Shown here: in pieces, positions 23,515 through 36,580 of the stretch
How the letters are laid out: each line of letters opens with the position of its first letter
Numbering within the stretch: the first letter of the stretch is position 1
Assembly (NCBI GenBank): GCA_039809245.1
Contig: JBDHUP010000001.1
Coordinates: 100,137-164,136, forward strand
DNA from: Minisyncoccia bacterium
GTDB taxonomy: Bacteria; Patescibacteriota; Minisyncoccia; Phycocordibacterales; UBA9973
Reading direction: 5' to 3'
DNA length: 64,000 nt
The notes under the pieces: generated by a model
What the model was told of the DNA's origin: nothing
Seen by the model: only the letters and a program-made list of their open reading frames with translations
Database searches by the model: none
Position numbers and translations under genes: made by a program

Positions 23515-24150
23515 TTGTATACTAAAATCATATCAATGAACTTAACTGTACACATATTTCTACCGTATCTACTTCTCTATAAATATTGGGCTATATTCGG
23601 AATAACACTCATAGCAGCACTTGCTCTACCTATACCTCCAGGAGCACTTTTAATGGCTTCTGCCGCATTTGCTAGTCAAGGATATTTTTCCTTTCCTTTA
23701 GTTGTTATAGTTGGAATACTCGGTAATATCGCTGGTGATAATATTGGATATTGGATAGCCAGAAAATACGGTAAAAGGGTTTTATATAAAATGGGTTTTC
23801 GTAGAAAAATTGAATCTCAAAAATACAGAAACATAGAAACCCGTATTAAGCGACACCCAGGCGCTTTAATATTCTTTAGTAGATTCGAAGTTTTTTCAAA
23901 CTTAGCGGTTAACCTTATTTGTGGTTTAAGTAGATTAAATTATAGAAAATATTTATTTTTTGAAATAATTGGAGAAGCTCTACAGGTTTTTATATACTGC
24001 TCTATAGGTTACCTAGTTGGTGATAATTGGGTAACTATTAGTGGAATTATTACTAAATTCCTAATCTTTATAATTCTAGTAGCATCACTTTTGATAATAA
24101 TATATGGTAAAAAAATCTGGCGCTATATAACCAGAGATATTAAAAATTAA
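23515..24150 (+). CDS. dedA: DedA/SNARE-associated family membrane protein
   Basis: GILGNIAGDNIGYWIARKYGKR motif and the typical TM topology. Confidence 0.75.
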   Translation: MYTKIISMNLTVHIFLPYLLLYKYWAIFGITLIAALALPIPPGALLMASAAFASQGYFSFPLVVIVGILGNIAGDNIGYWIARKYGKRVLYKMGFRRKIESQKYRNIETRIKRHPGALIFFSRFEVFSNLAVNLICGLSRLNYRKYLFFEIIGEALQVFIYCSIGYLVGDNWVTISGIITKFLIFIILVASLLIIIYGKKIWRYITRDIKN

Positions 24151-24154
24151 TTTG

Positions 24155-24240
24155 CGGAGGCGGTGAGATTCGAACTCACGGTCCTTTAAAGGGACGACGG
24201 TTTAGTAAACCGTTGATTTAAACCACTCATCCACGCCTCC
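24155..24240 (-). tRNA. Type II (long variable arm) tRNA-Ser-like gene with anticodon loop TTACTAA (anticodon ACU, A34)
   Basis: Reverse complement is GGAGGCGTGGATGAGTGGTTTAAATCAACGGTTTACTAAACCGTCGTCCCTTTAAAGGACCGTGAGTTCGAATCTCACCGCCTCCG. 3-bp D-stem, discriminator G, long variable hairpin. Confidence 0.7.
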
Positions 24241-24362
24241 ATCGTTTCACTCAGTCGGCGTGTCTTCGTGTCCTCCCGGACCCTTCCCTCAAACGGTTCT
24301 CTGCACATCGCTTGTCGGCCTATCGACCGAACGGATGAAATATAAAGCAGTTTATATTTCAT

Positions 24363-24376
24363 ATCCACGCCTCCAT
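24363..24376 (-). repeat. 14-nt exact duplicate (ATGGAGGCGTGGAT on the minus strand) of the 5' end and leader of the tRNA-Ser-like gene, 134 nt upstream of it
   Basis: + strand atccacgcctccat occurs at 24229-24242 and 24363-24376. Confidence 0.6.
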
Positions 24377-24440
24377 ATTAGTGTTTGTCTAGCATAGCAA
24401 ATAGTCTGGTCTTTTTCCAGAGGTAAGGTAAACTAGGTAG

Positions 24441-25630: not shown

Positions 25631-25717
25631 GGAGACGTGTCAGAGTGGTCTAACGTACCTCCTTGCTAAGGAGGCAGGCTTTAATCGGCCTCGAGAGTTC
25701 GAATCTCTCCGTCTCCG
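25631..25717 (+). tRNA. tRNA-Ser (GCU), type II
   Basis: GGAGACGTGTCAGAGTGGTCTAACGTACCTCCTTGCTAAGGAGGCAGGCTTTAATCGGCCTCGAGAGTTCGAATCTCTCCGTCTCCG. Confidence 0.8.
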
Positions 25718-25727
25718 CACATAAAAA

Positions 25728-25759
25728 ATAAAAGCTTAGTGGGTAACTAAGCTTTTATT
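25728..25759. terminator. Bidirectional terminator hairpin between tRNA-Ser (+) and the arsR-like gene (-)
   Basis: ataaaagcttagt/actaagcttttat inverted repeat flanked by A/T runs. Confidence 0.6.
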
Positions 25760-26078
25760 TTTTATGTGCGAGTTTATGTAAAATGCGACAAGGTTCAACT
25801 ATACGAGGATCTATAATATTATAGTAACCATTTAAACCCTTACGATGAACAGTTACAAGTTTAGCATGGCGAAGCAAGGCTAAATGCTGAGAAACATTCG
25901 CTTTTGAAATACCTAGAGTTTTAACAAGGTCTTCAACTGGCATTTCTTGTTCACGTAATAGGTTTAATATTTCTAAACGTTTTGGATTAGAAAGAATCTT
26001 ATATATTTCAGCATTTCTCTGATATGCAATTCGTGGTAGAGGTTGTTTAATCTTCATAGTTTCTAAAGTATGCAACAA
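25755..26078 (-). CDS. ArsR/SmtB-family HTH transcriptional regulator
   Basis: ILSNPKRLEILNLL...VEDLVKTLGISKANVSQHLALLRHAKLV wHTH motif. Confidence 0.8.
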   Translation of the reverse strand: MLHTLETMKIKQPLPRIAYQRNAEIYKILSNPKRLEILNLLREQEMPVEDLVKTLGISKANVSQHLALLRHAKLVTVHRKGLNGYYNIIDPRIVEPCRILHKLAHKK

Positions 26079-36459: not shown

Positions 36460-36509
36460 GGACTACATAGAAAAAGGAGTACGCAGATACTCCTTTTTCT
36501 ATGTAGTCC
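36460..36509. repeat. 50-bp perfect palindrome (22-bp arms, 6-nt loop) abutting the 3' end of tRNA-Ile. A terminator or a MITE-like insertion.
   Basis: ggactacatagaaaaaggagta cgcaga tactcctttttctatgtagtcc. Flanked by tccgccct / tccaccct. Confidence 0.6.
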
Positions 36510-36580
36510 ACCCTCTTGGATTCGAACCAAGGACCCCAGAGGTATAAGCTCTGTGCTCTAACCAACTGAGCTAAGGGTGG
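36507..36580 (-). tRNA. tRNA-Ile (anticodon UAU, reads AUA)
   Basis: Reverse complement is CCACCCTTAGCTCAGTTGGTTAGAGCACAGAGCTTATACCTCTGGGGTCCTTGGTTCGAATCCAAGAGGGTGGA. Anticodon loop is CTTATAC. Confidence 0.75.

Follow-up and report, generated by a model that had tools for sequence, protein, structure and literature searches.

[quoted passage not shown] The leader described below, which precedes a tRNA-Ser(ACU) gene in a 64-kb stretch of patescibacterial DNA (the window), is likewise a short, putatively transcribed element that flanks a stable-RNA gene and whose end copies an end of that gene, and members of both families can be arranged in tandem (here at loci L149 and L204). It is, however, the mirror image of a TLR, lying upstream and copying the 5' end of its tRNA (12 of 12 nt, or 14 with leader bases included; this copy is called the decoy), and it goes beyond the TLRs in having an added strand complementary to the tRNA (the anti strand) and strong covariation support. 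It shows no sequence relationship to the E. coli TLR/rtT family: neither the window nor contig L143 matched it in Rfam at E ≤ 1.

Riboswitches, T-box leaders and attenuators share other properties with the leader, namely a multi-helix domain, a P1 closing helix and a 3' strand with an alternative partner downstream. Strands with two alternative partners usually show themselves by a duplicated sequence, and the leader combines a covarying 5' multi-helix domain with pairings that are, by computation, mutually exclusive. What sets it apart is the target, which is the acceptor/D region of a tRNA rather than a terminator or RBS; it contains no T-box motifs and falls into no Rfam family, and to our knowledge no described riboswitch gates a tRNA. 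Precursors of tRNAs and degenerate copies of tRNA genes can also give rise to functional RNAs, as with 3'ETS-leuZ, an sRNA from a tRNA-operon spacer, and tRNA-Other of B. cereus, a regulatory pseudo-tRNA; these are tRNA-derived, as the leader may be, but without a decoy and an anti strand aimed at a neighbouring tRNA. Several other RNAs were considered and set aside. SRP RNA looks similar by eye in its tetraloop and purine-rich flanks, but the bases of the symmetric loop differ and there is no Rfam match; GAGGGAAGGGUCCGGG resembles RNase P CR-I only superficially, as its GUCC pairs locally with GGAC and this pairing covaries; and RNase P RNA, the hammerhead, twister, pistol, hatchet and HDV ribozymes and group I/II introns all gave no Rfam match at E ≤ 1.

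Wobble position 34 is the other unusual property of the locus. Across prokaryotes, A34 tRNAs are nearly absent, fifteen ANN anticodons being treated as absent across bacteria, and the reason for this avoidance is an open question for which engineered E. coli strains are in use (2026 preprint, 10.64898/2026.05.15.725136). In the literature that we searched, we found no account of a bacterial tRNA-Ser(ACU) or of the leader, and the original prediction, made from the letters of the window, was right that A34 is unusual.

The window is low in G+C and contains pilin-like ORFs, as would be expected of a Patescibacteria (CPR) genome, and has no rRNA. A type II tRNA with A34 had been proposed from its letters, and both ARAGORN (tRNA-Ser(act), minus strand, 24154..24240) and Rfam agree on it. 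The gene scores 57.3 bits with RF00005, for which the gathering score is 29, and so scores higher than the window's own tRNA-Ser(GCU) gene at 25631 (45.8 bits); it has a 7-bp acceptor stem, a cloverleaf, the T loop GTTCGAATC, a long variable arm and G73. As the gene and the repeat both lie on the minus strand, "upstream" here means higher window coordinates, which corrects the earlier wording. The anticodon loop had also been taken for that of tRNA-Ser(GCU) but for a G-to-A change at position 34; this is true of the loop itself (UUACUAA versus UUGCUAA), but the D and anticodon stems of the two genes differ. The ACU gene is therefore no recent copy of the window's GCU gene, and a recent duplication of the latter is ruled out as its source. 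To judge by its G73, its long variable arm and its conservation (see below), the tRNA is probably charged with serine and used in translation.

Metagenomes were searched with the exact 5' half of the tRNA as the query and N at position 34. The search matched 96 contigs, all of which carry A34, and position 34 is thus A in 97 of 97 orthologous loci; a sequencing error at the anticodon (G, not A), the outcome by which the original prediction was to fall, is not what was found. The variable-arm helix covaries, with compensatory substitutions across the metagenome loci, and in most of these loci a divergent tRNA-Ser(GCU) with a different anticodon stem lies beside the ACU gene. Representative genomes were scanned with an anticodon-arm pattern in which position 34 was left free, and at least 120 loci were found; among the matches listed, 89 have G34 and 8 have A34, the latter from Saccharibacteria, Paceibacterota, an unclassified MAG (L003) whose tRNA is identical to the window's ACU tRNA, and two MAGs labelled Gammaproteobacteria. 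A look at other genomes, as had been proposed, therefore finds the ACU tRNA in Saccharibacteria, in Paceibacterota and on 96 metagenome contigs. The A34 genes of the CPR have in common a distinctive D arm, GGAUGAGUGGUUUAAAUC, that is absent from the G34 genes, so they form an orthologous family of their own; its D arm and anticodon stem are seen across CPR phyla, and in Saccharibacteria and Paceibacterota the ACU gene of the same backbone adjoins or lies near a separate GCU gene.

These data bear directly on the reading in which the ACU gene is a dead, mutated copy of tRNA-Ser(GCU), or a sequencing error, and the sequence upstream of it is irrelevant. The textbook rarity of bacterial A34 speaks for this and nothing else does, and we give it next to no weight, as the comparative data have already refuted it: A34 stands in 97 of 97 loci of the same backbone, the variable arm covaries, the Rfam score exceeds that of the window GCU gene, and across CPR phyla the family is set apart by its D arm and anticodon stem. 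The conservation of A34, the covariation and the spread of the family together exclude both sequencing error and pseudogene. On sequence grounds, tRNA-Ser(ACU) is a genuine, conserved isoacceptor of a Patescibacteria (CPR) lineage that stands alongside tRNA-Ser(GCU). Eleven viral contigs (L217 to L227, IMG/VR), several of them tRNA arrays, encode ACU serine tRNAs on non-CPR backbones, so A34 serine tRNAs are not confined to Patescibacteria. In the two MAGs labelled Gammaproteobacteria (L017:7189-7278 and L087:2811-2899), tRNA-Ser(ACU) has yet another backbone, GGAGAGGUGGCUGAGUGGCCGAAAGC; its presence there could reflect an independent origin, mis-binning or transfer.

An encoded, lineage-conserved wobble A is likewise found in bacterial tRNA-Arg(ACG) and tRNA-Leu(AAG), both of which carry I34 after deamination, and in tRNA-Thr(AGU) of Mycoplasma, in which the conserved genomic A34 is reportedly left unmodified. 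tRNA-Ser(ACU) differs from these A34 tRNAs in belonging to a split codon box, with AGY for Ser and AGR for Arg, in which inosine would lead to misreading of AGA; since AGA is Arg in the standard code, an I34 that read it would mistranslate. A code change from AGA to Ser is ruled out and the code of the window is standard, as AGA positions align with Arg and Lys in homologues (R at 54%, K at 20%); AGT positions align with Ser. The ORFs of the window contain 246 AGT, 69 AGC and 212 AGA codons, AGU being 3.6 times commoner than AGC. The loop does not match the TadA-substrate loop U33-A34-C35-G36 of tRNA-Arg(ACG), for it reads U-U-A-C-U-A-A and has U at position 36, and no deaminase motif (TadA gene) was found in the 64-kb window, the part of the genome within the scope of this work. 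Most likely, tRNA-Ser(ACU) is a dedicated reader of AGU. As a conserved natural A34 tRNA, it would be an exception to the avoidance of A34 that is almost universal in bacteria and, by its place in a two-fold codon box, a ready test system for A34 modification and AGA misreading; it is found in addition in phage tRNA arrays and in a lineage with cultivated members (Saccharibacteria).

The second claim, that the 5' end of the tRNA recurs exactly as a 14-nt repeat 134 nt upstream, is correct: ATGGAGGCGTGGAT occurs at 24229-24242 and at 24363-24376, both times on the minus strand and with a spacing of 134 nt, and none of 100 shuffles contained at least three matches to it at up to 2 mismatches, which places the repeat beyond chance. 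The 120-nt spacer had been described as highly structured, and so it appears, with a perfect 12-bp hairpin and a fold better than that of shuffled sequences (z-score −2.8); it has about 52 to 55% G+C in a neighbourhood of roughly 30% G+C. No match for the spacer was found among the 4227 families of Rfam at E ≤ 1, and the covariance-model scan that had been suggested for 24241..24376 returned no leader family at that threshold. The parts of the locus are listed in Table 1; the decoy is the 5' strand of the closing helix P1, and hairpin HP1 is common to both types of leader defined below and to the trailer family.

Table 1. Features of the tRNA-Ser(ACU) locus in the window, and positions of trailer RNAs on related contigs
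Feature	Location	Strand	Remarks
tRNA-Ser(ACU), type II	24155..24240	-	G73; CCA not encoded; Rfam RF00005, 57.3 bits
Anticodon A34-C35-U36	24206..24204	-	plus strand reads AGT
Upstream copy (decoy)	24363..24376	-	24374..24363 = tRNA nt 1-12, GGAGGCGUGGAU; rest of the 14-mer is two leader bases
HP1, 12-bp A/U-rich hairpin with CUGC loop	24335..24362	-	arms ATGAAATATAAA/TTTATATTTCAT 100% complementary; 3 pairs compensatory
HP2, UCGGUC-GAUA-GGCCGA	24315..24330	-	compensatory changes in 3 of 6 pairs
HP3, variable hairpin, base CAAG..CUUG	24290..24314	-	helices 4 and 5 together, 6 compensatory pairs
Purine-rich junction AGGGAAGG	24282..24289	-	near-invariant in type A alignment
HP4, GUCC-GGGA-GGAC	24270..24281	-	U-A to C-G in 5 of 11 sequences
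Anti strand CACGAAGACACGCCGAC	24254..24270	-	complement of tRNA nt 1-17 and of decoy nt 1-12
Purine-rich linker, immediate pre-tRNA leader up to RNase P site	24241..24253	-	two conserved variants, GAGUGAAACGA and GAACGAAGUGA
Putative extended -10 box (TGC TATGCT)	24391..24399	-	16 nt upstream of decoy
Terminator-like hairpin, then T run	24106..24135	-	downstream of tRNA
Trailer RNA	L163:1644-1779, L143:1001-1135, L149:3032-3179, L159:702-853	+	
Trailer RNA	L134:3120-3255, L141:9353-9518, L177:318-456	-	
Trailer RNA, further loci	L201, L204, L210, L211		two in tandem in L204
Trailer RNA, fused forms	L141, L148		

The upstream DNA of the 97 orthologous tRNA loci (window and metagenome) was then compared. 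Before the tRNA, most loci show just a short promoter region rich in A/T, and about 70% are without a leader. Eleven, including the window, carry a leader of 128 to 139 nt (type A) in which the order is GGAGGCGUGGAU, HP1 with its CUGC loop, CCGU, HP2, HP3, GAGGGAAGG, HP4 with a GNRA-like loop, CACGAAGACACGCCGAC, linker and tRNA; the decoy is invariant in nine of these eleven. Type B, of 104 to 120 nt, is present at seven loci and has the decoy and HP1 as in type A, a different body and a long closing helix, its decoy being about 18 nt long with one extra (bulged) A. A diverged type A-like form is found in L003 and L205 (22.5 bits), and seven loci (L128, L135, L142, L200, L202, L212 and L215) hold deletion remnants.

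Compensatory changes occur in 13 of the 39 pairs of type A, a number as high as which was seen in none of 500 shuffles, and sliding the 3' partners in the alignment abolishes the covariation signal; with its many G.U pairs, the structure points to the tRNA strand as the one transcribed. There are no compensatory changes in the closing helix P1, because its 5' strand is fixed, and most type A sequences have one mismatch there. By covariance model and blastn, the leader occurs once per locus and always immediately 5' of the tRNA, and neither 671 kb of related DNA nor the 64-kb window contained a copy away from the tRNA. Flanking genes differ among the leader-bearing lineages, and the junction sequences are near-invariant. 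We consider it very likely that this is a real tRNA and that its leader, of which the repeat forms part, is conserved and structured. The leader of the window also contains a 60-codon ORF that runs into the tRNA and whose start (GGAGG, 7 nt, AUG) looks like a start codon behind a ribosome-binding site. A leader peptide is ruled out, however, as the start in L154 is AUA with a compensating stem change and frames and stops vary by locus; moreover, substitutions in the stems are non-synonymous yet compensatory. Constraint is evidently on the structure of the RNA, not on the ORF.

Among relatives whose malic enzymes (MaeB) are 74 to 81% identical to that of the window, the same site holds a type A leader, a type B leader (L127) or none (L163 and L172), and leader-bearing loci are scattered over the variants of the tRNA variable arm. 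To judge from this patchy spread among close relatives, the leader is dispensable, turns over fast and is often decayed. About 50 nt upstream of the full type A leader of L149 (just above L149:2799, minus strand), a decayed remnant, GAAGG..AAGACAUGCUGACGAGUAAAACGA, stands directly 5' of it, and this tandem of remnant and full copy suggests unequal recombination between direct repeats. Direct repeats of 12 to 19 nt would favour duplication as well as clean deletion, and leaders could in addition be exchanged by homologous recombination at the flanking conserved tRNA genes.

The anti strand stands at the end of both leader types and is the complement of tRNA nt 1-17/18. This strand can pair with the decoy or with the real 5' end of the tRNA, which gives two mutually exclusive folds. 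The decoy has only nt 1-12 in common with the tRNA in the window and in type A, and the anti strand CACGAAGACACGCCGAC forms 11 Watson-Crick pairs and three tandem G.A pairs with tRNA nt 1-17; in L210 and L203 the tandem G.A pairs of the anti:tRNA helix are replaced by Watson-Crick pairs. The type B anti strand, CCACUCAUCCACG, pairs perfectly with tRNA nt 6-18 and with its decoy only around the conserved bulged A, and type-B-long has CCUCC in place of CCGAC; these variants lend support to the helix with the tRNA. In duplex predictions the anti strand binds tRNA nt 1-21 more strongly than the decoy in 17 of 17 leaders, by 2.7 to 9.4 kcal/mol, and this bias towards the tRNA is reached by two routes, a truncated decoy in type A and the conserved bulged A in type B; the asymmetry could have been inherited from the founding duplication and not selected.

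Minimum-energy folding of leader plus tRNA gave a "swapped" structure, in which the anti strand pairs with the 5' end of the tRNA and the decoy with its 3' acceptor strand, in all ten cases tested (four type A, five type B and the diverged L003). For the nine intact leaders the swapped fold is more stable than the separate folds taken together by 9 to 17 kcal/mol, and for L003 by a small margin (−71.8 against −70.1); tertiary structure and modifications of the tRNA do not enter the energy model, which may therefore overstate how far this fold dominates. When growing prefixes of the window transcript were folded, the anti strand flipped between its two partners as the chain grew. In L171 the decoy is mutated (G7A) and the anti strand still matches the tRNA, and in remnants that lack the decoy and keep the 3' part the anti strand is mutated and its duplex with the tRNA is at background level. 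Loop-loop kissing between HP1 and HP3 was ruled out, there being no consistent complementarity.

A second family of RNAs was seen at related tRNA genes. These trailer RNAs, of about 135 to 165 nt, lie immediately 3' of tRNA-Ser(GCU), of tRNA-Ser(ACU) or of one other type II tRNA (Table 1); the family is not present in the window and has no match in Rfam. A trailer starts with a copy of the 5' acceptor strand of the tRNA and ends with a copy of the neighbour's 3' end, and the T stem is copied as well. It contains an acceptor-like closing helix, a T-stem-like helix, a CUGC-capped hairpin like HP1 and two to three further hairpins, with 20 covarying pairs, and it fits the definition of the E. coli TLRs directly. 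The trailers show that mimicry of tRNA halves is a recurrent theme around these tRNA genes.

In most leader-bearing loci the decoy is preceded, 13 to 21 nt upstream, by a -10-like TATGCT box that in many cases has TG before it; this is about the distance of the box from tRNA G1 in leader-less loci, and the box is probably the promoter from which leader and tRNA are co-transcribed. Between it and the divergent start of the malic enzyme gene, there is a weak terminator-like hairpin at 24405-24421 (minus strand) of the window. The locus would thus be one minus-strand unit of promoter-like box, 134-nt structured leader, tRNA-Ser(ACU) and terminator-like hairpin, the leader running from the decoy (tRNA nt 1-12) through four covarying hairpins with purine-rich junctions to the anti strand and a linker that reaches the RNase P site. 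Of the explanations first offered for the repeat, that of a long processed leader is the one supported, by the conserved, covarying RNA and the promoter-like box upstream of the decoy, and processing would be expected at the RNase P site. A single strand that can choose between two partners, a functional target being one of them, has the architecture of a switch, hence our proposal that the leader gates its tRNA. With the anti strand on the decoy, the tRNA cloverleaf would form and RNase P would release the tRNA; with the anti strand on the tRNA, the acceptor and D stems would be sequestered and the decoy would pair with the tRNA 3' strand. [quoted passage not shown] Taken as a whole, a conserved tRNA whose leader acts as a folding and maturation switch is our preferred but tentative reading, which we regard as possible but short of probable.

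The leader might instead be a stand-alone small RNA derived from a tRNA, i.e., a heavily remodelled tandem copy of tRNA-Ser with an acceptor-like closing helix that is co-transcribed, released by RNase P at tRNA +1 and active in trans; it could bind a protein that recognises the CUGC-capped hairpin, and its complementarity to the tRNA would then be a by-product of its origin. The closed domain of type-B-long, which keeps both acceptor strands (GGAGGC...GCCUCC plus G), suits this reading, as does the order of the leader helices, which resembles that of tRNA-Ser, and the trailers are closed tRNA-like RNAs in which the CUGC hairpin recurs and 20 pairs covary; the E. coli TLRs at rRNA operons are a precedent for processed small RNAs (PMC8144298). 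A stand-alone RNA would, however, leave unexplained why in 17 of 17 leaders the tRNA is a better match for the anti strand than the leader's own 5' strand, and why the 5' strand stays identical to the tRNA while the 3' strand drifts; no copies were found away from the tRNA in the 671 kb and the window. We judge it rather unlikely. The original prediction had listed a tRNA duplication remnant among its options, and half of this stands: origin by partial duplication is plausible, given the two acceptor strands of type-B-long, but the leader is not a mere remnant.

The patchy turnover of the leader keeps two further readings alive. Were it a neutral tRNA-linked repeat, a functionless by-product of unequal recombination or slippage at a conserved tRNA gene, its patchy distribution and many deletion derivatives would be expected, as would the remnant and full copy in tandem in L149; direct repeats of 12 to 19 nt would promote duplication and clean loss, and for most TLRs of E. 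coli, which have no known function (PMC8144298), such persistence without a role has been assumed. Neutrality does not account for four hairpins with compensatory changes, for junctions that are near-invariant despite differing flanking genes or for two architectures that keep the same relation of decoy and anti strand, and a free 13- to 18-nt complement of the tRNA 5' end would do harm; this reading is unlikely. Insertion of a mobile element, either small and non-autonomous or itself the end of an integrated one, into the 5' part of the tRNA gene, with duplication of a 12- to 19-bp target, would similarly produce an insert flanked by direct repeats; it would fit the finding that the same site in close relatives is type A, type B or empty, and that trailers take the terminal sequences of whichever tRNA precedes them. 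Yet each locus has a single copy, with no other in the 671 kb of related DNA or the 64-kb window, no consistent transposase or integrase is nearby and the neighbours vary by locus, and the constraint is of an RNA-like kind (G.U pairs, compensatory changes), all of which makes such a footprint quite improbable. Direct repeats notwithstanding, a multi-copy MITE or transposon is rejected by the single copy per locus (blastn, covariance model), and an integrase att-site remnant by the fact that the repeat is the 5' end of the tRNA, not its 3' part, by the insert of 120 nt and by the lack of an adjacent integrase. Neither the leader core nor the exact tRNA had a match in 2.9 million viral contigs, which speaks against a phage or integrative origin. 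The site-specific recombination footprint that had been entertained at first thus finds no support in copy number, neighbouring genes or viral sequence.

Pre-tRNA leaders are usually treated as disposable. One that carries both a copy and a complement of its tRNA would point to control of tRNA supply at the RNA level in organisms that have very few protein regulators, and it suggests a possible role for the TLRs, a class that has been unexplained for 45 years. The most far-reaching version, in which this would be the first RNA switch to gate tRNA maturation through sequestration of the acceptor/D region, may have evolved to meter a potentially hazardous A34 tRNA of a split codon box and would form a class of tRNA-flanking "half-mimic" RNAs of Patescibacteria together with the trailer, is in our view doubtful.

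Further observations concern other tRNA genes of the window. The tRNA-Ser(GCU) gene at 25631 sits beyond the malic enzyme gene, and the last bases of its 3' end are overlapped by a perfect inverted repeat (25 nt, 5-nt loop; 25716-25770) that begins inside the gene, which is terminator-like, yet unusually long and perfect for a terminator. At 36506-36580 on the minus strand there is a tRNA-Ile with a UAU anticodon, an uncommon bacterial way of reading AUA; AUA is heavily used in the ORFs of the window (608 codons, versus 635 for ATT).
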